From: an uncultured Clostridia bacterium
Lineage (GTDB): Bacteria; Bacillota; Clostridia; Christensenellales; UBA3700
Reading direction: 5' to 3'
Length of the DNA: 64,000 nucleotides
Assembly: GCA_947177795.1 (NCBI GenBank)
Contig: CAMWVR010000002.1
Location: 25,764 to 89,763 of the forward strand
The notes under the pieces were generated by a model. The model was given only the letters and a program-made list of their open reading frames with translations. It had not been told where the DNA came from and made no database searches. A program made the translations under genes and the position numbers. Positions 7,301 to 61,996 of this stretch are shown in pieces; position 1 is the stretch's first letter, and each line of letters starts with the position of its first letter.

Positions 7301-9242
7301 AAACGACGAAGTTAAGGTAGAACTCAACGGCGGCAATCATAAGTATACTTATGACGGCAATGCGCACGGCAACGAGTTGAAAGTCACGACAAGCGCGTTG
7401 AGCGTAAACGATATCGTCAAGACGTACTATAGAGGCAGCGAGGTAAACGAAAATAACAGGCTTGAGGGAGCACCGACTGACGCAGGTAAGTATTTGCTTG
7501 TGATGAGCTTAAGCGCGCAAGACGAAGAGGACTTTGTATTGTCGACGAGCAGAATAGAATTTGAGATAGAGAAAGCTAAGATAATGGCGGTATGGAATAC
7601 CGAGGGGCAAATCCCCGTGATATCCAACTTGAACGATAATCTCAAAGAGATAGTAGGATATATCTATTACGATGCGGAGGGCAATCAACTTGAGGACGGA
7701 GCTCAACTCGAAGTAGGCAAGACTTACAGCGTCAAGGCAATACTCAAGGGAGATTACGGGAAGAACTATGAGTTCGTAGCTCAAGACGGAGAGACGGTGC
7801 TTGACGACCCGACTACGACGGAAGAAGAGGAGTTTACCGTCAAGGATAGCAACAACGGCGACGGTAACGGCATAGGCGGAGTAGGCAGCGGAAACCAAGG
7901 CGGAGACGGTAACGGCAGCGGAAACGTCAACTTTGACAACGTAGGCGAGATACTTAAGCAGTGGTGGCAAGTCATCGCAAGTGCAGTAAGCATAATATTG
8001 ATAATAATATTTATGAGCAAAGGCATAGGCTACGCCAACAAGCGAAAGAAAGCCAAGAGGACGACGGAGAAATACGCCAACTATTACGCAGGCGCAACGG
8101 GCTTGTTTGGACTCGCAATGACGGCTTGGACTGCAATAGCTTGTACGCTTATGGGCGTGGCGGTATTGAGCCTTGTCTTTATGATAATCGAGAAATCGCT
8201 CAACAACAAGGCGCAAGAAGAGCTTGAAGACGCAAGAGACGAGTACGATCGCAACAGAGCTGAGGTCGAAGAGAGAAAACGCGACGAAAATATGCGCATG
8301 ATGTTTATGGGCATGATGGGCGGTCAAAGCGGCAACGGCAATATGGGCGGCGGTTACGTCGTGCAACAAGGACTCGGGGCGGACGAGATAAGAGGCATAG
8401 TATCAGAGACTATGACGGCATTGCTCCCGGGTATGCAACAGCTTTTGCCTCAACAGGCGTCTTCCAATGACGAAGTCATAAAGAGCCTTATAGAAGGACA
8501 AAAAGCAATAATGGAAAAACTTGCCGAGCAATCTTCCGAAAAGGTTGTCGTCGAGAGAGAAGTCGCAAGCGCAGGCATGGTGGGCGTGGTAGGAGTGACA
8601 AACTCTAACGACGAAACTATCAAAAAACTTGCCGAGGGACAAGATTTGATTATGCAATGCCTTGCTCAACTCACAAAAGACAAAGTTGAAGACCAAAAAG
8701 AAAAAATCGTCGAGAAGATTGTCGAAGTACCCGTGGAGAAGATAGTCGAGGTACCTGTCGAAAAGGTTGTAGAAAAGGTAGTGGAGAAAGAAGTAAAAGT
8801 CAAAGTAACCGCTCCTGCAAAGCCAAAGATAGAAAAAGTTCCGAGACTTACTTTAGACGAGGCTTACGCATTGCTCAGCAAAGAGCAAAAGAAATACTTT
8901 GACGGATTGAGAGACTACGCTCTTACTAAGTATAAGTGCAAAGAGAAGAAGTCGACGTACTTCGTAGTCTACGGACAGACGAGTACCAATCCATTGGTCA
9001 AGCTGACGATAAAGAAAGACACGACGGTAGCACTCTTGAAAATGGAAGACGAGTATATGAAAGACATCAGAAGAGACGCAACGGGAGACGGAACTAAGAT
9101 CAAGGTCAAAGAGACGGAAGTCGTGGTAAGCGACGCTCAAGCATGCAAAGCGGCAAAGAATATGATAGACCTTAGGGAAGATCAGATTGAGAGGTATGCC
9201 GACTTGTTAAAAGAACAAAGGGCGATGAAGAGTAAGAAATAA
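4353..9242 (+). CDS. Giant (1629 aa) secreted/membrane-anchored protein: signal peptide, about 1200-aa adhesin-like ectodomain, TM region, and about 400-aa coiled-coil/repeat tail
   Basis: GTG start and signal peptide (MKLNKLKKCLFGTLMISVLLLAIMTATTLFVPAQEIAQA). A W..RS...IRPAFHLNL motif resembles DUF6273-type surface domains, and there are beta-rich Ig-like segments. An MBG-like unit is present (YTYDGNAHG...TDAGKY). The TM block is WWQVIASAVSIILIIIFM + KRKKAKR + ATGLFGLAMTAWTAIACTLMGVAVLSLVFMII. The tail holds a G/M-rich stretch, a duplicated L(I/A)EGQ..IM motif, and EKIVEVPVEK repeats. Confidence 0.8.
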   Translation: MKLNKLKKCLFGTLMISVLLLAIMTATTLFVPAQEIAQADTETSDIGKITVDGYESNPTSKVFNGDKLRSLYSQIVGKENATYADLVKKLSDATDNKMCSADFRTTSIDGKEIYVTIDGMKWAAMYLANNKSGQPVLTLWLVDSNDIDDSNYSSYVYNDYTASSLGDYPALMYATSQLRAICLNNGGIYGTSITTYDTAVQKADHPFAKFTMPNGTYDGVELKGSLYDFIEIPEQMEWQEFESSEKNGDPDPTNYENDAWSTEVNVFKSLNRTPLTDIVGYSNWNKDKLWVPSYAESGYYVRNYSYRGMWRESDEVFDSSSYYWTRSVPPSRYSDAYSNKGSSSIVTTTWNIRPAFHLNLSEVEKSTTVAVPSQGEKKKDFYIDDNTDLEFNLNGVDTTKLDITCVSQPVSGETAGTMTYKASTFGLVTLKASKVGKYTVTVKPKNGECWSSGTATPVEYTFYIKYLVDEPALIGQTGALSISKNYADGEQEIKFAKEFYDATKYDIKPNTSPSGLTFDDSSGEAIFKVKDADTYTASVELKDKTLMEWNADNLDTSKVSGDTANKTITITIQPRLLMISLDPNGAWSVPYGEVGSFAFTDDRVNTDDVIRFTTTYALKDGSGSSVTLTNTTTGNRTEFSIPPSLAKGVYELSITLNSSGQGKNYVLNGSPIKKEFSVVDKEIDLEQADIIWGYENLRVSNGEWQRLGAWDNNTVVLNYTGAEFKWSVDEIALAQKGVKVDYDGLGYENAVATNSGSAIYTTTVHLLPIVETSILNTKTFTIKWKIDQGLYDLSGVSWDYADGELEYTGRGQEVKLTGLLSSLVPQYTGNRQTNVGDNYLAKVNGFVNNDSNFKDPDINDPTTYIYKDGETFPWELVWKIVKKKISLSWEAKEAVDVNGRNFTYYVAAGEDADKISGYEYYRGDDYSSSGGGSATGSPIKFEDIVVVEKQVDSYWAVAILSAEYDNNYEIVSNKARLFSVGSTNDEVKVELNGGNHKYTYDGNAHGNELKVTTSALSVNDIVKTYYRGSEVNENNRLEGAPTDAGKYLLVMSLSAQDEEDFVLSTSRIEFEIEKAKIMAVWNTEGQIPVISNLNDNLKEIVGYIYYDAEGNQLEDGAQLEVGKTYSVKAILKGDYGKNYEFVAQDGETVLDDPTTTEEEEFTVKDSNNGDGNGIGGVGSGNQGGDGNGSGNVNFDNVGEILKQWWQVIASAVSIILIIIFMSKGIGYANKRKKAKRTTEKYANYYAGATGLFGLAMTAWTAIACTLMGVAVLSLVFMIIEKSLNNKAQEELEDARDEYDRNRAEVEERKRDENMRMMFMGMMGGQSGNGNMGGGYVVQQGLGADEIRGIVSETMTALLPGMQQLLPQQASSNDEVIKSLIEGQKAIMEKLAEQSSEKVVVEREVASAGMVGVVGVTNSNDETIKKLAEGQDLIMQCLAQLTKDKVEDQKEKIVEKIVEVPVEKIVEVPVEKVVEKVVEKEVKVKVTAPAKPKIEKVPRLTLDEAYALLSKEQKKYFDGLRDYALTKYKCKEKKSTYFVVYGQTSTNPLVKLTIKKDTTVALLKMEDEYMKDIRRDATGDGTKIKVKETEVVVSDAQACKAAKNMIDLREDQIERYADLLKEQRAMKSKK

Positions 9243-9659
9243 TAGATATTTCGACTTCGCTACGCTCCGCTCAATATGACTCGTTTGAAGCGAGAGTCAC
9301 GCCTTGAATGCGTCACTCTGAGCGAAACGAAGTGAAGTCGAAGAGTCTAATTTAATAATGTCATTTCGACCAAAGCGTAGCGTCGTGGAGAAATCTCAAC
9401 TGATATAAAAATGATTAGACCTCTCCGCTACGGTCGGTCGAGGTGACGAACACACCTCATCACCGCCTACGGCGGAGCTTCCCCTCAAGGGGAAGCCGAG
9501 GCACGGATATTTTCTGTCACTGACGCTCGCTACGTCCTCGCACCTGCTTGCTCGCTATGTACGACTACGTTACACTATGCTCATGGTGACTCGTTTAAAG
9601 CGAAAGTCACACATTCAACGAGTCATATTGAGCGGAACGAAGTGTAGTCGAAATATCTA
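9243..9659. repeat. Composite repeat block: 5 type-1 structured units, module-3 sequence and two extra perfect hairpins, bounded by inverted TATT-box units
   Basis: Units: 9243-9280 (-, TATT/AATA), 9312-9349 (+, CTCT/AGAG), 9360-9396 (+, TTTC/GAAA), 9416-9447 (-, CCTC/GAGG), 9622-9659 (+, TATT/AATA). Extra hairpins are CCGCC-TAC-GGCGG and GCTTCCCC-TCAA-GGGGAAGC (about 9463-9497). Positions 9516-9560 match the reverse complement of 32105-32150. Confidence 0.9.
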
Positions 9660-9688
9660 ATGTATTAAAGAATTAATCAAGCAAAGAC

Positions 9689-9714
9689 AAAAGCCACCTT
9701 AAAGGTGGCTTTTG
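9689..9714. terminator. Bidirectional terminator between the giant gene and the convergent acyltransferase gene
   Basis: AAAGCCACC-TTAAA-GGTGGCTTT with A-run and T-run flanks. Confidence 0.75.
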
Positions 9715-9768
9715 CTCGGTTAAACCGATATGTGGAAGTGAAAAAATTATGTGAAAAAAGCAAATTAA

Positions 9769-10809
9769 TTAAATTCTGTTTTCTGCAAAAGACTCTTCTT
9801 CATTTGCGTCTTCGAAGTTGCAATACTCAATCAATTCTTCGTCCATTTCGTCTTCGACGACGATTTGTCTCGGAGTGATTTGGTTTTGAGCCATTTTGAG
9901 CATCACGTTTTGACGCAAAGCATTGTCGTTTGGCTTTGTCAACAGCGTTTGTTCTTTGTCTATGAGTCCTTGCGCAACGAATTTGTTTTCAAGGGGAGTC
10001 AGTCTCATGTCATACTGCTCGTAGTCGTATCCATAGAATTCGCATACGGTGCGGTCGTACATTTCTTGCGTAGCCTTTTGCAAGTACTCGATATTCTCTT
10101 TAGCCGACAAATCTTTTTTTGGATAGATAGCGGGGCATATCTTGACCGTGCAGTCTTTCTTGACGCCCAGCTTTCGTCTGATCCAATTTGGTTTGCGGAA
10201 GAGTATTACCGTCATTACGACAGGCACGTTGTTTTTGACTGCGTAATGGAAAGCGCCTTTTTTGAGCGGACGGGAATTTTCGTACTTTTCCCACATTACT
10301 TGCTCGGCGTAGAACGTGACGACGGAGTTGCCTTCTTCAAAAATCGTCGAGATCTCTTTATCGAGATTGCTCATTGCTTTGATAGAATTTGCAAGAGGCA
10401 AAAATCTGCCTGCTCTCAAGAATTTTCCGCCGATGCCTTTTTTGAGTTGAAATTCTGCGCCCGTCATATAGTGTCTGTGACCAAAAGCTACTTGGAAGTT
10501 GACCATTGCGTCAAGCAACATGACGTGATTTGACACTCTTATTGCATTGTCCACTTGTTTGAGATTGTCTTTACCCTCGATTTTGAGGTCAAACAACAAT
10601 TTGTTGGCGAGCGGGAGCATAGTGCGTAAAAGGAATTTGACAATCGAGCTTCCCACTTTGAAACTTGCGGTTTTTGGACGGAACTGATAATCCTTGTCCA
10701 CGGTGATTGCATCGTCGACAGTATATGGCGTAGACCATTGATCGTACGCTTCCATTCTTGCGTATTGCGCATGCATTTGATCGTATTCTTTTTGGGTAAT
10801 CTTTGCCAT
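9769..10809 (-). CDS. Lysophospholipid (1-acyl-sn-glycerol-3-phosphate) acyltransferase family protein
   Basis: 346 aa. It has the HX4D-type motif SNHVMLLDA and downstream blocks consistent with the PlsC/LPLAT fold (FYAEQVMW, VPVVMTVILF). Confidence 0.6.
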   Translation of the reverse strand: MAKITQKEYDQMHAQYARMEAYDQWSTPYTVDDAITVDKDYQFRPKTASFKVGSSIVKFLLRTMLPLANKLLFDLKIEGKDNLKQVDNAIRVSNHVMLLDAMVNFQVAFGHRHYMTGAEFQLKKGIGGKFLRAGRFLPLANSIKAMSNLDKEISTIFEEGNSVVTFYAEQVMWEKYENSRPLKKGAFHYAVKNNVPVVMTVILFRKPNWIRRKLGVKKDCTVKICPAIYPKKDLSAKENIEYLQKATQEMYDRTVCEFYGYDYEQYDMRLTPLENKFVAQGLIDKEQTLLTKPNDNALRQNVMLKMAQNQITPRQIVVEDEMDEELIEYCNFEDANEEESFAENRI

Positions 10810-11116
10810 ATCTTTGTCCTCCGCTAATAAAATGTGTAAAAGTAATTGACTTTTATCTATTATTTTACTATTCTAATTATAGGTCAAATGGTACAAAATT
10901 TCAACTTAAAAACACATACCATTTGGCAGTGAAATGTATAATATTTGACATGTCAATATAATTATGTCGATTATTATACCACATTTTTGACAAATTGTTG
11001 CTACTTAATAATCAGTTAATATTGCGTTAACATTAAGTTAACATAGTCTTAACGATACTCAAATATGGCAAAAAAGTTTATATTTGTCAAACAAAATCAT
11101 CTATGGGAGAAGAATT

Positions 11117-11686
11117 ATGGACAAAACAAAAAAAGACAGAAGATTCAAGCGTACCCAACAGCAGTTGTTGTTGGCGTTGAAAGAATTGATAAACACCAAG
11201 AGTATTATCAATATTTCAGTGAGAGAACTTGCAGAGCTTGCCGACGTCAACAGAGCGACCTTTTATCTTCATTACAGAGACCCTTACGATATGCTCGAGC
11301 AACTTGGCAATGAATTTATTGACAATATGAAGACGATTCTCATCAAGGACAACGAGAGTTTCAATCCTGCCAAGAGTTTTGTAAATCTTTATAAATACGT
11401 CAAGGAAAATTACGACATTGCTTACATTCTATTTTCGCCCAACTGCGACAGCGGATTTGGCAGACATTTGGAGAGATCGCTTGAGAAGTTTTGTTTTGAC
11501 AGTTGGATAGTACGCGCCAAAGACGACGACTCTCGCAATTGCGATTATTACAGCGTCTACCTCGTCGCAGGTATCAAAGCGTTGTTGGAGAAGTGGATAT
11601 TCGACGGTTTTGTAGAGACGCCCGAAGAAATGGCAAAGTTATCTCAATATTTTATGATGTACGGCGGCAAGCAGTTCTGGGAATAG
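11117..11686 (+). CDS. TetR/AcrR-family transcriptional regulator (DhaS-like C-terminal domain)
   Basis: The ATG at 11117 is preceded by GGGAGA. The N-terminal HTH is FKRTQQQLLLALKELINTKSIINISVRELAELADVNRATFYLHY. The TTG at 11084 in the ORF track is probably an over-extension. Confidence 0.8.
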   Translation: MDKTKKDRRFKRTQQQLLLALKELINTKSIINISVRELAELADVNRATFYLHYRDPYDMLEQLGNEFIDNMKTILIKDNESFNPAKSFVNLYKYVKENYDIAYILFSPNCDSGFGRHLERSLEKFCFDSWIVRAKDDDSRNCDYYSVYLVAGIKALLEKWIFDGFVETPEEMAKLSQYFMMYGGKQFWE

Positions 11687-11711
11687 TTGATTCGTCAAAA
11701 GGGCAGTGATA

Positions 11712-12161
11712 CTAAGATTTTGACGGGATATCATATAAAGACTTTAATTCAAGCAATCGGGCGTAGGCAAGTTGATATTGCGCTACGCTTACCAATTGGA
11801 TTTTTTCATCTTTTGTAAACAAAGTCAGTTTGCCAATCTTTCCAAACTCTTTTTCCGCTTCGACTTTTTGCAAATCGCAAATCTTTATTAAATATTTATT
11901 TTTGCCTATAATCAATGTGTCGTCGTTGAGTTTGATAAGGTCAAACGTGAAGGAGAATTTTAGGTGCTTTGCTAAGCCGTTGCCTCCCACGCCAATCAGC
12001 GCAAGTGGCACGGAAAGAAGCCAAGCGCTATAAATGGATGGTCTAGAACTTTCGACAAAAAATAAGCCGTAAATTCCTAACGGCAGAGTAATTATGCCCA
12101 TGATTAGCATAAAGAAATAAACAAAAAACATTGACTTAGATTTTTTTGCAATTATCTCCAT
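11712..12161 (-). CDS. Hypothetical membrane protein (two N-terminal TM helices plus a small soluble domain)
   Basis: 149 aa with two hydrophobic helices. It overlaps the upstream gene's stop codon by 1 nt. No family recognised. Confidence 0.55.
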   Translation of the reverse strand: MEIIAKKSKSMFFVYFFMLIMGIITLPLGIYGLFFVESSRPSIYSAWLLSVPLALIGVGGNGLAKHLKFSFTFDLIKLNDDTLIIGKNKYLIKICDLQKVEAEKEFGKIGKLTLFTKDEKIQLVSVAQYQLAYARLLELKSLYDIPSKS

Positions 12162-12772
12162 TATTTTGCCTTTTTATTAAACATTCTGTCGTCGTCTGTG
12201 ATTTTTCTCAAAACTCGGCAAGGATTGCCCACGGCTATCACTCCCTCGGGAATATCCTTTGTGACGACGCTGCCGCTGCCTATGACAGAGTTTTTGCCTA
12301 TCGTCACACCGCCGTTGACGATGACTCCGCTTGCAAGCCATACGCCGTCGCAAATGGTGATTGGCTTGGCGTACTCGAGATCGTATACGCCGTCGGGGTA
12401 TTGCTGAATGGCTCTCTCGTCTGCGACCAACGGATGCACGGGAGTTGCGATAGTGACGTTGGGACCGAACATAACGTTGTCGCCGATAGTCACGGGCGCA
12501 ACGTCAAGGATCACGCTGTTGTAATTTGCATAGAAATTTTCGCCTATAGAGGTGTTGCAACCGTAGTCGAATCTGACGGTTGGTTCAAAGTAAAAATCTT
12601 TTTTATGGCTTTTAAGCACACTGTGCATCAGGTCGTATCTCTTTTGTTTTTCGTCCTCGTTGGAGTTGTTGAATTCCACGCAAGCTTGACGCACCTTTTT
12701 TCTCAATGCAGCAAGTTCGGGATCTGTGGGATTGTATAGCTGACCTGCCACCATTTTTTCTCTTTCTGTCAT
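12161..12772 (-). CDS. maa: Maltose/galactoside O-acetyltransferase (left-handed beta-helix, Maa/LacA type)
   Basis: 203 aa with the Maa N-terminal cap (EREKMVAGQLYNPTDPELAALRKK). Hexapeptide repeats run through IGDNVMFGPNVTI...DGVWLASGVIVNGGVTIGKNSVIGSGSVV. Confidence 0.85.
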   Translation of the reverse strand: MTEREKMVAGQLYNPTDPELAALRKKVRQACVEFNNSNEDEKQKRYDLMHSVLKSHKKDFYFEPTVRFDYGCNTSIGENFYANYNSVILDVAPVTIGDNVMFGPNVTIATPVHPLVADERAIQQYPDGVYDLEYAKPITICDGVWLASGVIVNGGVTIGKNSVIGSGSVVTKDIPEGVIAVGNPCRVLRKITDDDRMFNKKAK

Positions 12773-12949
12773 AATATCACCTCTAATATATTTATATCAA
12801 TATTATATCAAGTCGTGCGATGATAAGTCAATGGGTTGTTTAGAGATTGCGTATTTACTCAGATTTTACATAATTAGAAAATTTTGTGTATTGACAGTAT
12901 TTATGTCGGTGATTATAATATACAGGGCTATTTTTGGCTAAGAGGTGAA

Positions 12950-14338
12950 ATGATGGGGATCGACGTATTGATAATAGGCGCAGGACCTGCGGGAATATTC
13001 ACGGCATTGGAGCTTGTCAAACAAAAGAGCTGCAAGAGCATTACTATAGTGGAAAAAGGCGCTTCGATAGAGCGTCGGCATTGCCCAAAGAATGAGACGG
13101 GCAAGTGCGTCAACTGCAAGAATTGCGCTATTACGACGGGATTTTCGGGCGCAGGCGCATTTTCCGACGGCAAGTTGTCGTTGAGTCCCGACGTGGGCGG
13201 AGATTTGCCCGACCTCGTTGGAAGAGAGTTGGCGGAGCAGACCATAGAGTATGCGGATAAGATATACCTTGAGTTTGGCGCAGACACGCATATCGAAGGC
13301 GTCTCCAATCCTCAAAAGGTCAAGGAGATACGCAAGAAGGCAATCAAAGCGGGGCTTAAACTCGTCGACTGTCCAATCAGGCACATGGGCACGGAAAAAG
13401 CTCGCGACATATACTATTCGATTGAGAAATATCTTTTGGACAACGGCGTAGAGATACTATTCGACACACCTTGCATAGACTTAATTATTGAAGACAACGT
13501 ATGCAAAGGCGCAATCGTCAAAAGGGGCAAAGAGGAAGTGTCGCTTGTTGCCGACAAGGTGGTCGTAGCCACAGGCAGAAGAGGCGCCGATTGGCTTGAG
13601 AGAGCTTGCAAGGCGCACAATATCGAGCATCAACCGGGCACTGTCGACGTGGGCGTGCGAGTGGAAGTGCGCAACGAGATAATGGAAGAAGTCAACGAGA
13701 CTCTTTACGAATCCAAGTTGATAGGCTATCCCGAGCCGTTCAAAAACAAAGTCCGCACGTTTTGCCAAAATCCCGGCGGATACGTAGCGCAGGAAAATTA
13801 TGACAACGGTCTTGCCGTGGTCAACGGACACTCGTTTAAAGACAAAAAGTCGGAAAACACAAATCTTGCGATACTTTGTTCGCACAACTTCAGAGAGCCT
13901 TTCAATCAGCCTATCGAGTACGCTAAAAAGGTGGGCGAATTGACGAATATGCTCGGAGCAGGCAGAATATTGGTTCAAAGATACGGAGATATTCTCAGCG
14001 GAAAGCGTACCTGGCAAAAGGAGTTGGAAAATTCTAACGTCAAGCCGACTTTAAAAGACGCAGTCGCAGGGGATATAACTTCTGCGTTGCCGTATAGATC
14101 GATGATAAGCATTCTCAACTTTATCAAACAAATGGACGAAGTAGTTCCCGGTTTTGCCAGCAGCGAAACTCTGCTATATTCTCCCGAGCTCAAGTTCTAC
14201 AGCAACAAGATCAAAATGGATGCGCATTTCAACACTAGCGTAAAGAATCTTCATTGTCTCGGCGATTCGTCGGGGTGGACTAGGGGATTGATGATGGCGT
14301 CGGTGATGGGGGTGCTGATGGCAAGAGAGATTATATGA
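12950..14338 (+). CDS. FAD-dependent protein (COG2509-type NAD(P)/FAD-binding oxidoreductase)
   Basis: Rossmann motif DVLIIGAGPAGIFTA directly after MMGI, with RBS AGAGGTG at 12941-12947. The start could be 12950 or 12953. The 12884 start in the track adds an implausible leader. Confidence 0.75.
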   Translation: MMGIDVLIIGAGPAGIFTALELVKQKSCKSITIVEKGASIERRHCPKNETGKCVNCKNCAITTGFSGAGAFSDGKLSLSPDVGGDLPDLVGRELAEQTIEYADKIYLEFGADTHIEGVSNPQKVKEIRKKAIKAGLKLVDCPIRHMGTEKARDIYYSIEKYLLDNGVEILFDTPCIDLIIEDNVCKGAIVKRGKEEVSLVADKVVVATGRRGADWLERACKAHNIEHQPGTVDVGVRVEVRNEIMEEVNETLYESKLIGYPEPFKNKVRTFCQNPGGYVAQENYDNGLAVVNGHSFKDKKSENTNLAILCSHNFREPFNQPIEYAKKVGELTNMLGAGRILVQRYGDILSGKRTWQKELENSNVKPTLKDAVAGDITSALPYRSMISILNFIKQMDEVVPGFASSETLLYSPELKFYSNKIKMDAHFNTSVKNLHCLGDSSGWTRGLMMASVMGVLMAREII

Positions 14339-14365
14339 CGACCGCATATATCGGCGCAATCAAAT

Positions 14366-14525
14366 GTCATTTCGACCGAAGCGTAGCGAAGTGGAGAAAT
14401 CTCAACGATATAATAAAATAGATTAGATTTCTCGACTGCGCTCGAAATGACTCGTTCAAGGTTTTACTTTCGATTCAAACGAGTCACCCTGAGCGTAGTC
14501 GAAGGGGCTGATCCGTTCGAAATGA
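14366..14525. repeat. Type-1 structured repeat cluster (3 complete units plus 1 truncated)
   Basis: Units: 14366-14402 (+, TTTC/GAAA, 16-nt loop), 14424-14451 (-, TTTC/GAAA, loop CGCAGT), 14483-14509 (+, CCCT/AGGG, loop CGTAGT). There is a truncated head in minus orientation at 14515-14525. Confidence 0.9.
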
Positions 14526-14544
14526 CATTGACGTCCATTTAAAA

Positions 14545-14578
14545 GATAAAAACAAGCGTACGATTTTTCGTACGCTTA
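14545..14578 (-). terminator. Intrinsic terminator of the asd-dapA-dapB operon
   Basis: On the minus strand, AAGCGTACGA-AAAAT-CGTACGCTT is followed by GTTTTTATC. Confidence 0.7.
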
Positions 14579-14610
14579 TTTCATAATATTAGCAAAATAT
14601 CAATTGATAC

Positions 14611-15378
14611 TTAATCCATAAATTGCGCAACCAAATCTTTCATTGAGTATTTGCCGCTTTGTTTTGTTGCGAGGAAGAGTCCTGCGCGTATTGCGCCTTG
14701 AGCGAATACCATTCTCGATTGCGCTTCGTGCTTTATCGTGATGACTTCGTCTTTGCCGATGAAAAGCACGTCGTGCTTGCCGACGATAGTTCCGCCTCTC
14801 ACGGCGTGGATACCTATCTCTTTGTTTTGGCGTTTGCTGTCCTTGCCTTGTCTGCCGTAGACGAATTCTTTGGAGTTGTCGAATTCTTCGTTAATGGCGT
14901 TGGCGATTGACAGGGCGGTGCCTGACGGAGCGTCAACCTTTTGATTATGGTGCTGTTCGATGATTTCCACTTCAAAGTTGTTGCCGAGGAAGTTTGCAGC
15001 CTTGCGGCACAATTCTATCATGAGATTTACGCCCAGCGACATATTGCTGGATTGGAATACTGCAATGCTCTTGCTTGCCTCGTCGATTTTTGCCTGTTGT
15101 TCTGCGGTATATCCCGTGGTGGCAAGCATGATTCCCGTCTTGTGGGCAAGAGCGTATTCAAGTATTTCGTTCAAAGCGTCGGGACGGGAAAAATCTATTA
15201 TCACGTCGGCATTGACGTTGATATCCTTTCCGCATTTAAATACGGGTACGGAGAATTGCTTAGCGTCGGCGAATTTATCCACGCCGCCCACGCATTGAGC
15301 GTTTTCAAAAGAGGGGAGACATTCGAGAATATTTCTTCCCATTTTACCGCCGATACCCCAAATTAAAATCTTTGTCAT
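14611..15378 (-). CDS. dapB: 4-hydroxy-tetrahydrodipicolinate reductase
   Basis: 255 aa with an N-terminal GxxGxxG-like motif (IWGIGGKMGRN), the EIIEQHHNQKVDAPSGTA signature, and HAVRGG. Confidence 0.92.
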   Translation of the reverse strand: MTKILIWGIGGKMGRNILECLPSFENAQCVGGVDKFADAKQFSVPVFKCGKDINVNADVIIDFSRPDALNEILEYALAHKTGIMLATTGYTAEQQAKIDEASKSIAVFQSSNMSLGVNLMIELCRKAANFLGNNFEVEIIEQHHNQKVDAPSGTALSIANAINEEFDNSKEFVYGRQGKDSKRQNKEIGIHAVRGGTIVGKHDVLFIGKDEVITIKHEAQSRMVFAQGAIRAGLFLATKQSGKYSMKDLVAQFMD

Positions 15379-15387
15379 ATCACACCT

Positions 15388-16266
15388 TTAAATTATATTG
15401 AGTCTTTGCATTTCTTCTTTAAGCGCCTTTGCCTTGCAATCGCTCATCGGAGTGAGCGGAAGTCTCAATTCGTTTTGGCAAAGTCCGAGCAGAGAGCAGG
15501 CGTATTTAATTGGAATGGGATTGACTTCGCTGAAGAGCAAGTCGATAAATTTGTCGTACTTGTTGAGCAACTTATCCGCACTGTCAAAATCCTTTGCGTT
15601 GGCGTACGCCATGACTTGCGCAAATTCTTTGGGCAAGGCGTTGCTTGCGACGGAAATCAGAGTAGTTCCGCCGAGTCTTGCGATATCCACTGCGAGTTTG
15701 TCGTCGCCGCTCATGAGCTGAAGACCCGTTCCCTTGACGGCTTGAGCCGTCTTGGCGATTTGTTCCAAGTTGCCGCACGCCTCTTTGATACCCACGATAG
15801 AGGGGATTGAATGCGCCAATCTACCTGCCGTCTCGGGGAGAATGTTGACTCCCGTTCTGCCCGGCACGTTGTAGATTATCATAGGCAAGTCGCACTTGTC
15901 GGCGATAGCCTCGTAGTGCAAATACAGTCCCTCTTGCGTACACTTATTGTAGTAGGGCGACACGACCAAGATACCGTCTGCGCCCTCGTCCTTTGCGACG
16001 ACAGAATTTTCCACGGCGGTAGCCGTGCAATTAGAGCCCGTGCCGAAGATGACGGGTACGCGTCCGTTGACTTGCTTGATTGCAAAATCTCGGAGAGCTT
16101 TCTTTTCGGCAGACGTCATAGTGGCTGGTTCGCCCGTCGTGCCGATAAAGACGATTCCGTCGATACCGCCGTCGATTTGATATTCAATAAGTTTTTTAAA
16201 ACTGTCGTAATCCACTCCCGATTTGCCAAACGGGGTAATTATCGCAGTGTAAGTACCTTCAAACAT
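15388..16266 (-). CDS. dapA: 4-hydroxy-tetrahydrodipicolinate synthase
   Basis: 292 aa with GTTGEPATMT, the YNVPGRTG motif and a KEA lysine region (VGIKEACG). Confidence 0.93.
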   Translation of the reverse strand: MFEGTYTAIITPFGKSGVDYDSFKKLIEYQIDGGIDGIVFIGTTGEPATMTSAEKKALRDFAIKQVNGRVPVIFGTGSNCTATAVENSVVAKDEGADGILVVSPYYNKCTQEGLYLHYEAIADKCDLPMIIYNVPGRTGVNILPETAGRLAHSIPSIVGIKEACGNLEQIAKTAQAVKGTGLQLMSGDDKLAVDIARLGGTTLISVASNALPKEFAQVMAYANAKDFDSADKLLNKYDKFIDLLFSEVNPIPIKYACSLLGLCQNELRLPLTPMSDCKAKALKEEMQRLNII

Positions 16267-16297
16267 ATTATTCCTTCTTTATATTATATATACTATA

Positions 16298-17317
16298 TTA
16301 TATTTTGCCGTTGGCGATCATATACTCGGCAATTTGTACTGCGTTGCTTGCTGCGCCCTTGCGGATATTGTCGGATACCACCCAGAGGTTGCAACCGCTT
16401 TCGACGGTGTCGTCGAGACGGATACGACCGACGTAGACTTCGTCGTGACCCGTTGCATCCATAGGCATGGGGTACTTGTTGTTTGCCACGTCGTCGACGA
16501 TGACGATGCCTTTTTGACCTTTGAGAGCCTCGATGATGCCTTCTTTGGTGCAAGGCTTGTTGAACTCAAGGTTGATAGACTCGGAGTGCGAGTTGAGTAC
16601 GGGGACTCTTACCGTAGTTGCGGTAACTTTGATGGATTGATCTCCGAGTATCTTCTTTGTCTCTTTCATCATCTTTTCCTCTTCTTTGGTATATCCGTTG
16701 TCGAGGAATACGTCGATATGAGGCAAGCAGTTGTTTGCTATCTGATAGGGGAATTTCTTAGTTGCGTACTCTTGTCCGTTGACAAAAGCCTTGAGACCTT
16801 CGAGAAGGTCGTTATATCCCGCTACGCCTGCGCCGCTTACTGCTTGGTAGGTGCTGTATACGACTCTCTTGATGCCGTATTTGTCATGGAGCGGCTTGAG
16901 AGCTACCATTGCTTGGATAGTAGAGCAGTTTGGATTGGCGATGATGCCGTGATTCCAATCGATGTCTTGTGGATTGACCTCGGGCACAACGAGCGGAACC
17001 GTCGGATCCATTCTCCATTGGCTGGAGTTGTCTATTACGACTGCGCCGCAATCTGCAAATACGGGAGCAAACTTTGCGCTTGTCGAACCGCCTGCGGAGA
17101 AGAGGGCAATGTCAACTTTGTGAGCCTTGACGTTTTCTTCCGTCAATTCGATGACGGTGTGGGGCTTGCCCATAAAGTCAATGACTTTGCCTGCGCTCTT
17201 TGCAGATGCAAAAAGATAATAATTCTCGACAGGCAATTGCTTTTCTGTGAGTACTTCCAAGAATTTGTTGCCAACCATTCCGGTTGCGCCGACTACGGCT
17301 ACGTTGTATTTTTTCAT
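16298..17317 (-). CDS. asd: Aspartate-semialdehyde dehydrogenase
   Basis: 339 aa with VAVVGATGMVG, the active-site NPNCSTI, and the SGAG motif. Confidence 0.93.
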   Translation of the reverse strand: MKKYNVAVVGATGMVGNKFLEVLTEKQLPVENYYLFASAKSAGKVIDFMGKPHTVIELTEENVKAHKVDIALFSAGGSTSAKFAPVFADCGAVVIDNSSQWRMDPTVPLVVPEVNPQDIDWNHGIIANPNCSTIQAMVALKPLHDKYGIKRVVYSTYQAVSGAGVAGYNDLLEGLKAFVNGQEYATKKFPYQIANNCLPHIDVFLDNGYTKEEEKMMKETKKILGDQSIKVTATTVRVPVLNSHSESINLEFNKPCTKEGIIEALKGQKGIVIVDDVANNKYPMPMDATGHDEVYVGRIRLDDTVESGCNLWVVSDNIRKGAASNAVQIAEYMIANGKI

Positions 17318-17371
17318 AAATATCTCCTTAAAGATAAAAGTATTTTCTTATTCAAGTCCACGATGAGCAAT

Positions 17372-17597
17372 AAAAAACGCTCTGCCATACAATAGGCAAA
17401 GCATTAAAGTTGACAATTGGATAGATATTGTCAGTTTAAGCGCTTCACCTGATTGACTAGGTGACAGTCGCAGGGTTGTTCACCGTAGCGACCAACCGCA
17501 TATCTCGCAAGATTGATATACGATTTCGGCAAAATATCCTTTCTTGGGTGCGTCTTGTCGCATTTTTCCCAATACTATTATATTCTGCGCCTCTGTA
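17372..17597 (-). promoter_or_regulatory. Lysine riboswitch (L-box) with terminator expression platform, leader of asd-dapA-dapB
   Basis: The minus strand reads ACAGAGGCGC..AGTA..GGGAA..GAAAGG..GCCGAA..TGG..ACTGTCAC-CTAGTCAATCAGG-TGAAGCGC, matching the conserved L-box blocks. It is followed by the hairpin GCTTTGCC-TATTGTAT-GGCAGAGC plus TTTTTT (17372-17402), and lies directly upstream of lysine-pathway genes. Confidence 0.8.
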
Positions 17598-17689
17598 AAC
17601 TTAAGAGTATATTATCATATTATTTAAGATATGTAAAGCGATTTGCAATCAAAACATTTTGGAAATTTATGTAACGCTGTCGCCGTGAC

Positions 17690-17833
17690 GTCATTTTGCG
17701 TCAACTTGTCATTTCGACCGTAGTAATTTTGTCATTTCAAGGTAGTCATTCTGTCATTTCGAGCGTAGCCGAGAAATCTATTTAATAACGCCGTTGCGTT
17801 ATTTTGTCACCTCGAGCGTAGCCGAGAGGTCTA
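17690..17833 (+). repeat. Type-1 repeat cluster: tandem array of truncated GTCATTT heads followed by 2 complete units
   Basis: Heads start at 17690, 17708, 17731 and 17745. Complete units are 17753-17780 (TTTC/GAAA, loop CGTAGC) and 17806-17833 (CCTC/GAGG, loop CGTAGC). Confidence 0.85.
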
Positions 17834-17999
17834 ATCCGTAAAAAGTTTGCTTACGCTGCAACTTTAATTTACAAAAAATTGCACGATGCAATTTTCTTTT
17901 ACATTGCGGTTTATAATTTATGGGCAAGAATATTTGCTTAAATAAAAAAAAGAGTGTATACTGTATGGGTAAAATAATCCAAAATTAAACGGAGAGGGT

Positions 18000-19001
18000 A
18001 TGAGCGCAGTAAATAATATAGCTAAAAAACTCGTTTTAAAGAGAGACTTATCGCCTGAGGGCAGAGTAACTAATTACAAAGGTCGCATTCGTCAGGCAAT
18101 AGCGGCGATATCGGCGAATATGACTAAGTTGGTATTGCTCAACTTGCTTATGGTCGTGGCGTGCGCTCCTCTTATTGCGACGTATTTTGTTATGAGATCC
18201 CAAGAGGCGGCGGCAGTTGCCGGCTTGAATTTCAGCACGGGCATAGGCGTAGGCTTTGGCGTAAGCGACGATACGTTGATTGCAATCGAGAGGATATACG
18301 ACATAAGGCTTATGGGATACGGACTTGCGATACTCCCGACGTGTCTGCTCGTGGGATTGTTTGCTTCGGGACTTTACTATTGTTGCCGTAATATGCTTTG
18401 GAATACCAAAGTCAAGGTGGTCAAGCATTTTTTCAGAGGAATCAAAAACAATTGGTATAAGTTCATGCTCTCGTTTGCTTGGCTTGGCGCATTGGCAACG
18501 GGCTTTGCGTGTTCGCTCATCAAAGTGCTTAAAGATACTGCTCTCAACGGCAGCGCCAACGCAGGTTGGTGGGCGCTCATGATATTCATCGGCATATTGG
18601 CTTTGCTGAGCGCTTTGTATATGATGATCGGGCAGGGTATGTACGTGACTTATAAGTTCAAGATGAAAGAGTATATCGTCAATACCTGCTGTCTCACGCT
18701 TTTGATGATATTGCCGGCGCTTATAGTTACGATTTTCTTCTCGGGCGTAATGGCGTTGAGCTTCGTCAGCATTATAGGTATGTTTATACTCGTCGTAATG
18801 GTAATGATAGGTTTTTCTGCCTTTGCGATATTTAATATTGCCTTCTCGCAATACGCTACCGACACCTTTATAGCTTACTTGTATGAAGAAGAGCAAAAGG
18901 CTATACTCAAAGAGCAAGAAAAGCAGGCGAAACAGCGCAACAAAGAGAAAAAGAAACAAGCTCAAAAGAACAATTATCAAGGCAAGAAGAAAAAGAGATA
19001 A
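18000..19001 (+). CDS. Polytopic membrane protein, YesL/DUF624-like, with a K/E/Q-rich C-terminal tail
   Basis: 333 aa and multiple TM helices. The N-terminal pattern LNLLMVVACAPLIAT and the later VKHFFRGIKNNW resemble YesL-family proteins. Assigned from memory only. Confidence 0.5.
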   Translation: MSAVNNIAKKLVLKRDLSPEGRVTNYKGRIRQAIAAISANMTKLVLLNLLMVVACAPLIATYFVMRSQEAAAVAGLNFSTGIGVGFGVSDDTLIAIERIYDIRLMGYGLAILPTCLLVGLFASGLYYCCRNMLWNTKVKVVKHFFRGIKNNWYKFMLSFAWLGALATGFACSLIKVLKDTALNGSANAGWWALMIFIGILALLSALYMMIGQGMYVTYKFKMKEYIVNTCCLTLLMILPALIVTIFFSGVMALSFVSIIGMFILVVMVMIGFSAFAIFNIAFSQYATDTFIAYLYEEEQKAILKEQEKQAKQRNKEKKKQAQKNNYQGKKKKR

Positions 19002-19007
19002 CACGTT

Positions 19008-19718
19008 ATGGGCGCTTACAGCATATTGGCAAAATATTACGATACGCTCATGGGCGACTTTGACTATGACGGATATTTTGAGTTCATAAGGGATAAAGTT
19101 GTCGGCGAGGGAGTGGACTTGGCTTGCGGCTCGGGCGAGATGACGCTCAGGCTTGCAAAATGCGGCAACAAGATGATGGGCGTAGATTTGAGCGGCGAAA
19201 TGCTCAACGCGGCGACTCAAAAGGCTAAGAAATCTGCGCTTGACGTCAAGTGGATCAATCTCGATATGTTGGACTTGGAGCTGAATCATTGCGTGGATTT
19301 TATCACTTGCGTATGCGACGGAGTAAATTACGTTGCGCAAAAGGACTTGCAAAAGTTTTTTGATAGGGTATATAATTGTCTCAAGGTGGGTGGAAAGTTT
19401 GTTTTTGATATTTCTTCGAGCTACAAGCTTGAGGAGATACTCGGCGACAATCTTTTTTGCGAGGATCTCGACGACGTGACTTATATATGGTCCAATGCGT
19501 TGGGCGACGGCTACGTAGATATGGACGTCGACTTTTTTGAAAAGATCGAGGGAGATATATATAAAAGGATAGAAGAGAGCCACAGACAGTATATCCATGA
19601 AGTAAGCTTTGTCAAGACTTGCCTTAAGAAATGGAGCGTTGAGGTTTTTGACGGCGAGACTTACGGCAAGCTTACGGATAAGTCAAAGAGAGTTATTTTT
19701 ACGGCGACTAAGGTTTGA
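19008..19718 (+). CDS. Class I SAM-dependent methyltransferase
   Basis: 236 aa with SAM motif I (GVDLACGSGEMTLRLA) and post-I acidic residue (MGVDLS). Confidence 0.8.
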   Translation: MGAYSILAKYYDTLMGDFDYDGYFEFIRDKVVGEGVDLACGSGEMTLRLAKCGNKMMGVDLSGEMLNAATQKAKKSALDVKWINLDMLDLELNHCVDFITCVCDGVNYVAQKDLQKFFDRVYNCLKVGGKFVFDISSSYKLEEILGDNLFCEDLDDVTYIWSNALGDGYVDMDVDFFEKIEGDIYKRIEESHRQYIHEVSFVKTCLKKWSVEVFDGETYGKLTDKSKRVIFTATKV

Positions 19719-19880
19719 CCTCGACGGGTCGTAATTGCGGTCACGGTTTACATAAGAAGAAATTTATTTAATATTGACATTTTTAAAAATTAGGTATAAT
19801 GTATTATTTAACAAATAAATAATTGCATTATTACTAAAGACGCTCAATTGGGGAAAGACAAAAGAATTATAGAGGGACTT

Positions 19881-22537: not shown

Positions 22538-22590
22538 GTCACACATTGTTTATTTCGTAAGTTGTCATTTCATTTATTTTATTATTTTTA

Positions 22591-22619
22591 TTGCGAAAGC
22601 ATATCAGTTGTGTTATAAT
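22591..22619 (+). promoter_or_regulatory. Candidate promoter for smc
   Basis: TTGCGA, a 17-nt spacer, then TGTTATAAT (extended -10), about 40 nt upstream of the smc start. Confidence 0.5.
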
Positions 22620-22660
22620 ATATCAGTAAAATTGTTGCCATTTGGCATAAGAGAGGTTTT

Positions 22661-26426: not shown

Positions 26427-26518
26427 GTCATTGACGCTCGCACGAGACAATCTAGCTTTATGTATTATGACAAATATTAGTGTCATTTCGACTGAAGCGT
26501 AGCGGAATGGAGAAATCT
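26427..26518 (+). repeat. Type-1 repeat units (1 variant plus 1 canonical)
   Basis: 26427-26454 is GTCATTGACGCTCGCACGAGACAATCTA, with ATTG/CAAT boxes around module-3 sequence. 26482-26518 is canonical, with TTTC/GAAA boxes and a 16-nt loop. Confidence 0.85.
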
Positions 26519-27472: not shown

Positions 27473-27545
27473 GAGACCTTTCGACTACGCTCAAGATGAC
27501 GTTTAGATGTCATTTCGACCGTAGCGTAGTGCAGTGGAGAAATCT
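27473..27545. repeat. Type-1 repeat pair
   Basis: 27473-27500 is minus orientation, with boxes TCTT/AAGG (one G.T-type pair) and loop CGTAGT. 27509-27545 is plus orientation, TTTC/GAAA, with a 16-nt loop. Confidence 0.85.
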
Positions 27546-31930: not shown

Positions 31931-32189
31931 TAGATTTCTCGACTGCGCTCGAAATGACATAAAAAGTTTGGTAGATGTGACATAGAGAATAAACTAAGTG
32001 ACAAATCTTCTGTCATTTCGACCGAAACGAAGTGAAGCGGAGAAGTCTCTACAGTCAACGAGTCACTCTGAGCGAAACATAGTGTAGACGTAAGGAGCGT
32101 AGCGACGGCATAGCGAGCAAGCAGGTGCGTCTCGTGCGAGCGTCAGAGTCTAATACGGATATAGACCTCTCCGCTACGGTCGAGGTGAC
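31931..32189. repeat. Type-1 repeat cluster between ffh and rpsP (4 units, including one long-loop variant)
   Basis: Units: 31931-31958 (-, identical to 14424-14451), 32012-32047 (+, TTTC/GAAG, G.T-type), and 32062-32152 (+, CTCT/AGAG boxes about 75 nt apart enclosing module-3 sequence). The fourth unit is 32162-32189 (-, CCTC/GAGG, loop CGTAGC). Confidence 0.88.
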
Positions 32190-35144: not shown

Positions 35145-35277
35145 GTCATTTTGACGACAATATTTTGTCATTTCGACCGAAGTGGAGAAATCTAAATCAA
35201 TGTGGAAAGAGACCTCTCGACTACGCTCGAGGTGACATATGTATATTTAGCTAAATAAAATTAAGTCGAAGAGTCTA
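35145..35277. repeat. Type-1 repeat cluster between rbgA and rnhB
   Basis: A truncated head at 35145. Complete units at 35167-35194 (+, TTTC/GAAA, loop CGAAGT) and 35209-35236 (-, CCTC/GAGG, loop CGTAGT). An isolated tail AGTCGAAGAGTCTA at 35264-35277. Confidence 0.85.
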
Positions 35278-47873: not shown

Positions 47874-47911
47874 GTCATATTGAGCGTAGCGCAGCGGAGT
47901 CGAAATATCTA
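47874..47911 (+). repeat. Type-1 repeat unit upstream of hisS
   Basis: GTCA-TATT-GAG-CGTAGCGCAGCGGAGT-CGA-AATA-TCTA. Confidence 0.88.
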
Positions 47912-49216: not shown

Positions 49217-49320
49217 TAGACCTTTCGACTACGCTCAAGGTGACATTTTGATATGTCGTTTCGACTAGTCTAAAGTCATTTCGACTAGCCAATGTCATTT
49301 CGAGCGCAGTCGAGAAATCT
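49217..49320. repeat. Type-1 repeat cluster between hisS and aspS
   Basis: 49217-49244 (-, CCTT/AAGG, loop CGTAGT), degenerate heads at 49255 and 49276, and 49294-49320 (+, TTTC/GAAA, loop CGCAGT). Confidence 0.88.
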
Positions 49321-55890: not shown

Positions 55891-55905
55891 ACGCGTCGTT
55901 ATGAC

Positions 55906-55991
55906 GTCATTTCGCTGGACACTGCGAAATGGAGAAATCTCAATCCTTACGTCGTCATTTCGACCGTAGCGTAGCGAAGCGGAGAAATCTA
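55906..55991 (+). repeat. Type-1 repeat pair after glyA
   Basis: 55906-55940 is a variant with TTTC/GAAA boxes, the 5' GA replaced, and an inner ATTTCGC/GCGAAAT stem. 55954-55991 is canonical with TTTC/GAAA boxes and loop CGTAG-CGTAG-CGAAG-C. Confidence 0.85.
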
Positions 55992-56010: not shown

Positions 56011-56050
56011 AAAATACGCTTGGTTTTACAATCGGGCGTATTTTTATTTT
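56011..56050 (+). terminator. Probable glyA terminator
   Basis: AAAATACGC...(17 nt)...GCGTATTTT followed by TATTTT. Confidence 0.5.
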
Positions 56051-61969: not shown

Positions 61970-61996
61970 GTCATCTCGACCGAAGCGGAGAGATCT
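61970..61996 (+). repeat. Type-1 repeat unit
   Basis: GTCA-TCTC-GAC-CGAAGC-GGA-GAGA-TCT. Confidence 0.88.

Follow-up and report, generated by a model that had tools for sequence, protein, structure and literature searches.

The 64-kb stretch of DNA analysed here (the window: 64,000 nucleotides of contig CAMWVR010000002.1 from an uncultured Clostridia bacterium) carries a family of short intergenic hairpins. It is likely that this element is a dispersed, strand-specific repeat of the repetitive extragenic palindromic (REP) type that is copied on single-stranded DNA and arranged either alone or as inverted dimers. At the locus flagged by the initial annotation, 14366-14509, three units of one such hairpin form inverted dimers. 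Each unit opens with an unpaired (T/C/A)GTC tag at its 5' end. A 5-bp stem follows, rich in pyrimidines on its 5' arm and in purines on its 3' arm and covarying between copies; then come a tandem G.A/A.G mismatch that is invariant, one S:S' pair, a cap and, at the 3' end, a CT tail. In the short class the cap is C(GNA)G with one bulged pyrimidine, and in the long class it is a C:G pair, a 3x3 G-N-A/G-N-A internal loop, a 2-bp RY:RY helix, a GNA triloop and a bulged pyrimidine before S'. The 3x3 internal loop would comprise two sheared G.A pairs around an N.N. Because G.A on one strand is C.T on the other, the fold is strand-specific.

The repeat in the window

Canonical copies follow the format GTC-A-NNNN-GA-S-[insert]-S'-GA-NNNN-T-CT, and 23 of them, 27-37 nt long, were found within the window, all intergenic (Table 1). 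The insert measures 6 nt in 12 copies, 10 nt in one and 16 nt in ten. This census recovered exactly the counts of the initial annotation, and the coordinates and loop sequences cited there were present as described. The 6-nt and 16-nt copies (12 + 10) were counted with patterns that left four variable stem positions free and did not require the arms to be complementary. These patterns matched nothing in 100 dinucleotide shuffles, versus 22 times in the window, and the free positions were complementary in 22/22 matches. The hairpin is thus no artefact of the search, because positions that were left unconstrained are complementary in all 22 copies. Eight stem variants occur (ATTTC, ACCTC, ATATT, ACTCT, ACCCT, ATCTT, ACCTT and ATCTC), the base before the invariant GTC is T in 14 of the 23 copies, C in 5 and A in 4, and the 3' tail reads CTC or CTA. 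As a side observation, the 5' arms in the window and in the loci of other genomes are nearly always pyrimidine-rich (ATTTC, ATTCC, ATCTC, ATCCT, ACCTC and others) and the 3' arms purine-rich, so that, with the GA mismatches added, the 3' half of a unit contains hardly anything but purines.

Copies stand alone or in head-to-head or tail-to-tail dimers, mostly of unlike units (a long with a short one, or different stems). Inverted dimers are seen at 14366/14425/14483, 27474/27509, 31932/32012, 35167/35210 and 49218/49294, and a mosaic cluster at 9244-9658. The flagged units sit in a 272-nt spacer between two convergent genes, dapB, which ends at 14611, and the gene for an FAD-dependent protein, which ends at 14338. 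There the 14366/14425 tail-to-tail dimer folds with z=-5.4 and the head-to-head dimer at 14425-14509 with z=-4.4; the dimers fold into long hairpins, and good folding scores come from dimers only, not from single units. The tail-to-tail layout of 14366/14425 was also seen at loci of Flavobacteriales, Verrucomicrobia and Christensenellaceae.

Several ready explanations for such a repeat were rejected. The hairpins are not intrinsic terminators, as no U/T tract follows them and no copy was called terminator-like; separate strong terminators lie near the repeats at 9687-9715, 14549-14582 (after the three flagged units) and 56011-56044. A coding reading was set aside because the copies are intergenic, and the initial annotation was right to regard the element as neither protein-coding nor a simple terminator. 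Irregular spacing and units that are 27-37 nt hairpins speak against a CRISPR array. As for a known RNA family, an Rfam scan of the window at gathering score hit only a lysine riboswitch elsewhere, and a search of two repeat regions at E<=10 gave weak matches only, all far below threshold.

Fold of the long insert

The initial annotation had read each 16-nt loop as three pentamers and one base that could fold into as many as three mini-hairpins side by side. This arrangement and a nested fold predict different pairs, which were compared in an alignment of 29 copies that carry 16-nt inserts. The window supplied 10 of these copies and 17 loci of other genomes the remaining 19; no pair internal to the insert was imposed by the selection of copies. 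Both pairs specific to the nested fold are kept in 28/29 copies, loop1-loop15 with 9 double compensatory changes (CG to UA) and loop5-loop11 with 11 (GC to AU). The pairs specific to the tandem fold, loop1-loop5 and loop11-loop15, are kept in 21/29 and 22/29, each with 3 double changes. The pair common to both, loop6-loop10, is kept in 29/29 with 6 double changes (CG to UA). When partners were slid by 1-3 columns as a control, the paired cells of the nested structure fell from 98.5% to 28-65%. Since the nested-only pairs are kept with covariation whereas the tandem-only pairs are often broken, the tandem fold is rejected, and the data support the long class as one coaxial extension made of a C:G pair, the G-N-A/G-N-A internal loop, the 2-bp RY:RY helix and a single apical GNA triloop. 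A single hairpin was also the minimum-free-energy structure of 71/71 folded inserts of at least 11 nt from other genomes. Most of those 71 show C + G(N)A + 2-8 bp helix + GNA/GNNA + G(N)A + G + Y, and in longer inserts the inner helix has 3-8 bp, as in C-GAA-GCC-GAA-GGC-GGA-G-T, C-GA-GGCC-GTAC-GGCC-GA-G-C and C-GAA-GCAGCC-AAA-GGCTGC-GTA-G-C.

The apex of the long class connects the repeat to a well-studied DNA motif. The mini-hairpin described by Hirao and co-workers has the published consensus forms GCGNAGC and GCGNNAGC, as outlined in PMC13037366, and by sequence the apex of the long class agrees with d(GCGNAGC) and that of its 17-nt relatives with d(GCGNNAGC). In 6/10 long window copies the apex is exactly GCGNAGC (GCGTAGC or GCGCAGC), the rest being ACGAAGT or GCGTAGT variants. 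The 17-nt inserts of relatives differ from the 16-nt ones only by an apical tetraloop, GCGTAAGC or GCGCTAGC, which fits GCGNNAGC. The link that the initial annotation drew to d(GCGAAGC) therefore holds, with the motif present at the apex, and so do the tandem G.A pairs that it placed in the stem, GA/GA being conserved on both arms. Its one to three mini-hairpins per loop come down to one per element. In the same source the mini-hairpin is far more stable as DNA than as RNA (Tm 76.5 C vs 39 C) and needs two G-C pairs, and CGAAAGCT, with one closing pair, showed no clear melting transition (PMC13037366). An oligonucleotide d(GTCATTTCGACCGAAGCGTAGCGAAGTGGAGAAATCT) would form a hairpin, not three independent loops. 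Nuclear magnetic resonance structures exist for hairpins with GNA-like loops that are built of C:G and tandem sheared G:A pairs, the "CGAG blocks" (PMC10085684). The stem module of the repeat, Y-GA-R opposite Y-GA-R (TGAG/CGAA), matches the CGAG block and would have the same geometry. Both are motifs of physical chemistry and of single places in nature, such as phage origins and a human promoter, and do not make up a dispersed family.

Against this background we regard it as very improbable that each 16-nt loop is a row of three adjacent C(GNA)G mini-hairpins that grows and shrinks by pentamer slippage (1x, 2x, 3x). The pentamer periodicity it builds on is real, and the consensus C1..G5 and C11..G15 could pair. 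Its own pairs, on the other hand, are broken in 8 and 7 of the 29 copies in which the nested ones persist with compensatory changes, and each of its mini-hairpins would have a single closing pair, the arrangement reported to lack a clear melting transition (PMC13037366). Nor do the insert lengths follow the series, as described below, and orthologous copies never differ by a pentamer.

Insert lengths and the pentamer periodicity

In the ten 16-nt inserts, 28/30 in-phase pentamers match YGNAR (manual count), so the periodicity reported by the initial annotation stands, while its rule of one, two or three copies fails. The 10-nt insert is CGACCGTAGC and divides as 4+5+1 nt rather than into two pentamers and a base. 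The loop lengths are not a fixed set either, as 17-nt inserts occur in close relatives of the same lineage (CGAAGC-GTAA-GCGGAGT, TGTAGC-GTAA-GCGAAAT and CGAAGC-GCTA-GCGCAGT) together with 6-nt and 16-nt ones. These relatives were compared over syntenic contigs with 86-94% HisS or 76-93% DapB identity. No orthologous copy among them switches between 6 and 16 nt, contrary to the polymorphism between 1x and 3x expected from slippage.

A wider census was made by scanning one genome per species, 185,579 species in all, with the pattern GTCATTTCGAS-N{1,31}-SGAGAAATCT, which is blind to insert length. The scan covers one arm variant only, and all its figures refer to at least 119 loci among the matches listed; within this scope the same arms were found in more than 100 other species. 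Insert lengths were 3, 5, 6, 7, 9-14, 16, 18-24, 26-28, 30 and 31 nt. The commonest was 5 nt (41 copies); 20 copies had 6 nt, 7 had 3 nt and 5 had 7 nt, and longer inserts numbered 18 at 9-13 nt, 9 at 14 nt, 15 at 16 nt, 8 at 18 nt and about 36 at 19-31 nt. This spread of 3-31 nt across genomes is a continuous distribution and refutes the quantised loops of the initial annotation. The dichotomy of 6 and 16 nt belongs to the particular sub-families that reside in this genome. With G.A accepted as a pair, YGNAR is self-complementary, and one or three copies of it would fold where two would not; the dichotomy in this genome may then exist because only odd multiples fold. Altogether, what the initial annotation observed was partly confirmed and its interpretation partly supported.

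Gain and loss between relatives and taxonomic spread

The repeats are gained and lost between close relatives. Along hslU-hisS-aspS, in relatives with 86-94% HisS identity, the hslU-hisS spacer holds one copy in the window, a degenerate and a canonical copy in L121, only a 3'-arm remnant in L123 and none in L125 and L127. The hisS-aspS spacer holds two copies in the window, three in L121, two in L123 and none in L125 and L127. Two further relatives, L129 (93% DapB identity) and L132 (88%), have no copies in their ~20-kb loci, versus five canonical copies in the window in the shared stretch from asd-dapA-dapB to SMC (14366-17832). Where a copy is orthologous it retains its stem and length, and the N of its GNA motifs drifts. 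Between the copy at 47874 and its ortholog L121:9928, stem and length are the same and 6/16 insert bases differ, one compensatory pair among them. Filled and empty spacers have diverged too far from each other for insertion boundaries or target duplications to be resolved.

The flagged spacer is without an orthologous counterpart in the relatives, and the hslU-hisS, hisS-aspS and asd-upstream spacers were compared instead. The gene order downstream of dapB is unlike that of the window (12884-14611) in every relative compared (L129, L130, L132 and L134), where TetR, a Mac acetyltransferase, an HTH+FAD protein or other genes follow dapB. Because this order differs in each relative, the flagged repeats lie at a rearrangement junction. 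A contig of a metagenome-assembled genome, JAIEEO010000032.1, is identical to window 9210-24815 and ends exactly at the edge of the 9244-9658 cluster, which indicates that the repeats break short-read assemblies.

The scan loci are spread over many phyla. They come from Clostridia, Bacteroidota (many Pedobacter), Chloroflexota, Planctomycetota, Verrucomicrobiota and Acidobacteriota, and also from Nitrospirota, Desulfobacterota/Syntrophia, Omnitrophica, one genome of the candidate phyla radiation and Gammaproteobacteria. Among complete genomes, carriers include Pedobacter sp. R-06 (NZ_CP183977.1), Flavobacterium ginsenosidimutans (NZ_CP158863.1) and chromosomes of Chloroflexota and Balneola. 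No linked gene family recurs among the at least 119 loci, where the repeated neighbours are nothing more specific than ABC ATPases, aminotransferases and response regulators; this, the intergenic location, the dimers of mostly unlike units, the contig break and the gain and loss between relatives are all REP-like behaviour.

Partial units and neighbouring features

Units with a 5' half only also occur (Table 1). They are in direct orientation and precede a full copy, each starting ~19-23 nt before its successor in the run; they sometimes include the loop and never the 3' arm, and they were also seen at L009, L031, L063, L071 and L121, in several phyla. Such runs might be the footprint of a copying mechanism or of hairpin-induced slippage. 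At 55895-55940 (+), just upstream of the canonical copy at 55954, lies a hybrid unit reading GTC ATTTCGC tggacact GCGAAAT, a perfect 7-bp stem with no GA mismatches, after which comes an ordinary 3' arm, GGAGAAATCT. At 32062-32155 (+) and 9505-9595 (-) the repeat has a longer relative, with a 5' arm GTCAC(TC/CA)TGAG and a 16-nt loop-like stretch; the two share an extra module, CATAGCGAGCAAGCAGGTGCG...GCGAGCGTCAG, and then an inverted "foot" (GTCAC...GTGAC at 9505-9595). Within the 9244-9658 cluster, 9450-9500 holds a G+C-rich palindrome that is unrelated to the repeat, GCTTCCCCTCAAGGGGAAGC, as well as another short hairpin, CACCGCCTACGGCGG. The lysine riboswitch (Rfam RF00168, 84 bits) lies at 17431-17603 (-), upstream of the asd-dapA-dapB operon, with two repeat copies just upstream of it on the opposite strand.

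Table 1. Repeat units and associated features in the 64-kb window (class refers to insert length)
Feature	Position	Strand	Details
Long-class copy	9244..9280	-	stem ATATT, insert CGGAGCGTAGCGAAGT
Long-class copy	9312..9348	+	stem ACTCT, insert CGAAACGAAGTGAAGT; A5:T11 compensatory variant
Long-class copy	9360..9396	+	stem ATTTC, insert CAAAGCGTAGCGTCGT
Sole 10-nt-insert copy	9417..9447	-	stem ACCTC, insert CGACCGTAGC
Long-class copy	9622..9658	+	stem ATATT, insert CGGAACGAAGTGTAGT
Flagged copy, long class	14366..14402	+	GTC ATTTC GA C (CGAAGCGTAGCGAAGT) G GA GAAAT CT; apex GCGTAGC; nested pairing
Short-class copy	14425..14451	-	GTC ATTTC GA G (CGCAGT) C GA GAAAT CT; tail-to-tail with 14366, head-to-head with 14483
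Head-to-head dimer spacer	14452..14482	.	palindromic ends TCGTTCAA...TTCAAACGA
Short-class copy	14483..14509	+	GTC ACCCT GA G (CGTAGT) C GA AGGGG CT; stem ACCCT/AGGGG, one mismatch
Two 5' half copies	17708..17752	+	GTC + arm + GA + S + loop, lacking the 3' arm; full copy 17753 follows directly
Short-class copy	17753..17779	+	CGTAGC; antisense to flanking minus-strand genes
Short-class copy	17806..17832	+	stem ACCTC, CGTAGC; antisense to flanking minus-strand genes
Long-class copy	26482..26518	+	insert TGAAGCGTAGCGGAAT; T1:A15 compensatory variant
Short-class copy	27474..27500	-	stem ATCTT/AAGGT; head-to-head with 27509
Long-class copy	27509..27545	+	insert CGTAGCGTAGTGCAGT
Short-class copy	31932..31958	-	CGCAGT
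Long-class copy	32012..32048	+	insert CGAAACGAAGTGAAGC
Short-class copy	32163..32189	-	stem ACCTC, CGTAGC
One 5' half copy	35145..35166	+	upstream of full copy 35167
Short-class copy	35167..35193	+	CGAAGT; core GA-CC-GAA-G(T)G-GA
Short-class copy	35210..35236	-	stem ACCTC, CGTAGT; tail-to-tail with 35167
Long-class copy	47874..47910	+	stem ATATT; ortholog in L121; site empty in L125, L127
Short-class copy	49218..49244	-	stem ACCTT, CGTAGT
Two 5' half copies	49255..49293	+	directly upstream of full copy 49294
Short-class copy	49294..49320	+	CGCAGT; ortholog in L123; site empty in L125, L127
Long-class copy	55954..55990	+	insert CGTAGCGTAGCGAAGC; between stop codon at 55890 and terminator 56011-56044
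Short-class copy	61970..61996	+	stem ATCTC, CGAAGC

Relation to known repeats

The GTAG-tagged REP/BIME/REPIN elements of E. coli and Pseudomonas carry a 5' GT[AG]G tag and G+C-rich stems and are associated with REP-associated tyrosine transposases (RAYT), the repeats flanking the cognate single-copy gene. Like the window repeats they are dispersed intergenic hairpins in mosaic clusters of alternating orientation, with inverted dimers as the likely mobile unit, and they have two loop-length classes that pair in dimers (the Y and Z REPs of E. coli). Unlike them, the window repeats have the foot (T/C/A)GTC in 23/23 copies and no GTAG tag, their stems are A+T-rich and carry GA mismatches, and the sampled DNA yielded no RAYT.

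A closer counterpart is the CGTC-tagged REP superfamily of Di Nocera, De Gregorio & Rocco (2013), which includes dRS3 of Neisseria and RPE-4 and RPE-6 of Rickettsia (PMC3733652). As summarised there, its tag is often TGTC, its 8-9 bp fully paired stem starts A-T and is closed by a loop of 4-5 nt, the tail is CCA, and the superfamily occurs in several phyla with no dedicated transposase known. The window repeats share with it a palindromic unit in the size range of 20-40 bp, an unpaired 5' tag (here most often TGTC, then CGTC and AGTC), a stem of eight positions beginning A:T and a short unpaired 3' tail. Both are intergenic, mostly between co-directional or convergent genes, both form head-to-head and tail-to-tail dimers of mostly unlike units with structured spacers, and both have several stem and loop sub-types per genome and occur in several phyla. 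The caps differ: against loops of 4-5 nt in the superfamily, those of the present family span 5-6 nt or are extended, to 16-17 nt in this lineage and to as much as ~31 nt in other genomes, and the account of the superfamily in PMC3733652 holds no report from Firmicutes or Clostridia.

A third point of comparison is offered by REP-like hairpins, termed "atypical", on either side of class 3 TnpA-Y1 (HUH) genes (Quentin et al. 2018, PMC6006769, Table S1). The hairpin given there, CGC-GA-CC-GTAA-GG-GA-GCG, is listed for Solibacter usitatus, Legionella pneumophila and Planctomyces limnophilus and has ~600 copies in Solibacter (PMC6006769). It shares its core with the window repeats, namely an outer stem, tandem GA/GA, CC:GG and a GNNA cap. 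Window copies with S=C read stem-GA-CC-GNA-G(Y)G-GA-stem, and the copy at 35167 matches that core as ATTTC-GA-CC-GAA-G(T)G-GA-GAAAT. The class 3 hairpins differ in their 5' foot, CnGA(G) versus (T/C)GTC here, and in having G+C-rich outer stems of 3-4 bp and a tetraloop cap. A search of literature text for eleven literal repeat sequences returned primer coincidences or nothing. The repeat family fits best as a new REP-type variant that shares the CGTC-tagged format; for its invariant G.A/A.G mismatch, its tail and its longer caps it is filed in none of the four described families.

How the repeat may act and move

What the data show is a dispersed element that comes and goes between close relatives and whose strand-specific fold is conserved across phyla by covariation. 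In the mechanism we propose, the GA-bearing strand would fold in single-stranded form, with the lagging-strand template as the most likely setting, a HUH/Y1-type or other structure-specific enzyme would recognise the folded strand, and units or dimers would be copied to new intergenic sites. REP/RAYT and IS200/IS605 elements are described as using the lagging-strand template (PMC6006769). In this lineage the lone copies lie 14:1 on the G-rich strand (GC skew; own tally), including three that are antisense to the local operon (17753, 17806 and L130:9036). This bias supports the reading as single-stranded DNA, as does the preference of the mini-hairpin for DNA. Of the single-strand function suggested by the initial annotation, a role as single-stranded nucleic acid is the most plausible, and that the element acts as single-stranded DNA in particular is a step that we infer. 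We also offer, tentatively and with some doubt, the broader idea that the fold of G.A "zipper" modules and GNA mini-hairpin, rather than sequence, is what is conserved in pan-bacterial repeats moved on single-stranded DNA by a class-3-like Y1 HUH or another enzyme.

Two other readings have to be weighed. The element could be primarily an RNA hairpin, in 3' untranslated regions (3' UTRs) or between cistrons, that shields mRNA against 3' exonucleases or is a site of processing or protein binding, and this benefit would have spread the repeat. Transcription is expected for several copies, since they sit after a stop codon and before a separate terminator (55954; 14366-14509), most lone window copies are sense-oriented, relatives have GNRA-type apical tetraloops, and E. 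coli REPs are presented as 3'-UTR regulators in bioRxiv 10.64898/2026.03.23.713779. We nevertheless consider this reading unlikely, since the repeat has no Rfam match, the hairpins lack a U-tract and none is terminator-like, the three lone copies named above are antisense to the operon, one half of each dimer is antisense, and the GNA mini-hairpin is much weaker as RNA according to PMC13037366. Lone copies between co-directional genes in other phyla are 22 sense versus 15 antisense, a tally that rests on crude gene calls (longest-ORF approximations, ORF being open reading frame) and shows no clear transcription bias. Copies resident in 3' UTRs may also act as RNA hairpins beside the single-stranded DNA route. 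That the repeat is instead a duplex-DNA binding site for a host protein (a nucleoid protein, gyrase or a regulator) with no single-stranded form is quite improbable. Binding of gyrase and IHF has been reported for E. coli REPs (PMC3733652), and the tag, GA and CT positions are indeed conserved in sequence. The stem positions, in contrast, covary rather than keep their sequence, as do the pairs within the insert, the inner helix varies from 2 to 8 bp, and GA on both arms is non-palindromic in a duplex, yet pairs in the hairpin. These features of stem, insert and GA arms favour a folded single strand over a duplex site.

Several observations weigh against a single-strand REP-type repeat as well. 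In nearest-neighbour folding single units are not unusually stable (z about 0), and 14366-14402 prefers a competing pairing; such models parametrise sheared G.A stacks and mini-hairpins poorly. The orientation bias comes from few independent loci with GC skew as a proxy for replication direction, the 22-to-15 tally of other phyla shows no clear bias, and the spread across phyla is drawn from one arm variant. No RAYT-like ORF was detected by phmmer with E. coli YafM (an approximate query sequence) in the window and at least 119 loci (1.16 Mb), and a regular expression for HUH...Y matched none of 5,288 ORFs from 1.16 Mb of the window and sampled loci. These transposase negatives are weak because RAYT and HUH transposase genes are single-copy and only sampled loci were covered. 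Finally, compared with the CGTC-tagged REPs as described in PMC3733652, stem positions 6-7 are an invariant G.A/A.G and not Watson-Crick, and the tail is CT(C/A), not CCA.

Significance

The family combines a very broad taxonomic spread with a well-defined non-canonical fold. Its structural signature is clear enough to be used in searches: a tag, a stem that covaries, a tandem G.A that never changes, a GNA cap and, in some copies, a coaxial extension. On the practical side, the copies break metagenome assemblies and create spurious small ORFs. Few non-coding features of bacterial genomes are as common as REP-type repeats, and for the CGTC-tagged half of these repeats we know of no mobilising enzyme or recognised structure. 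The architectural link to the hairpins beside class 3 HUH genes makes the question of the mobiliser testable. If true, a pan-bacterial class mobilised on single-stranded DNA would supply the "orphan" CGTC-type REPs with their missing mechanism.

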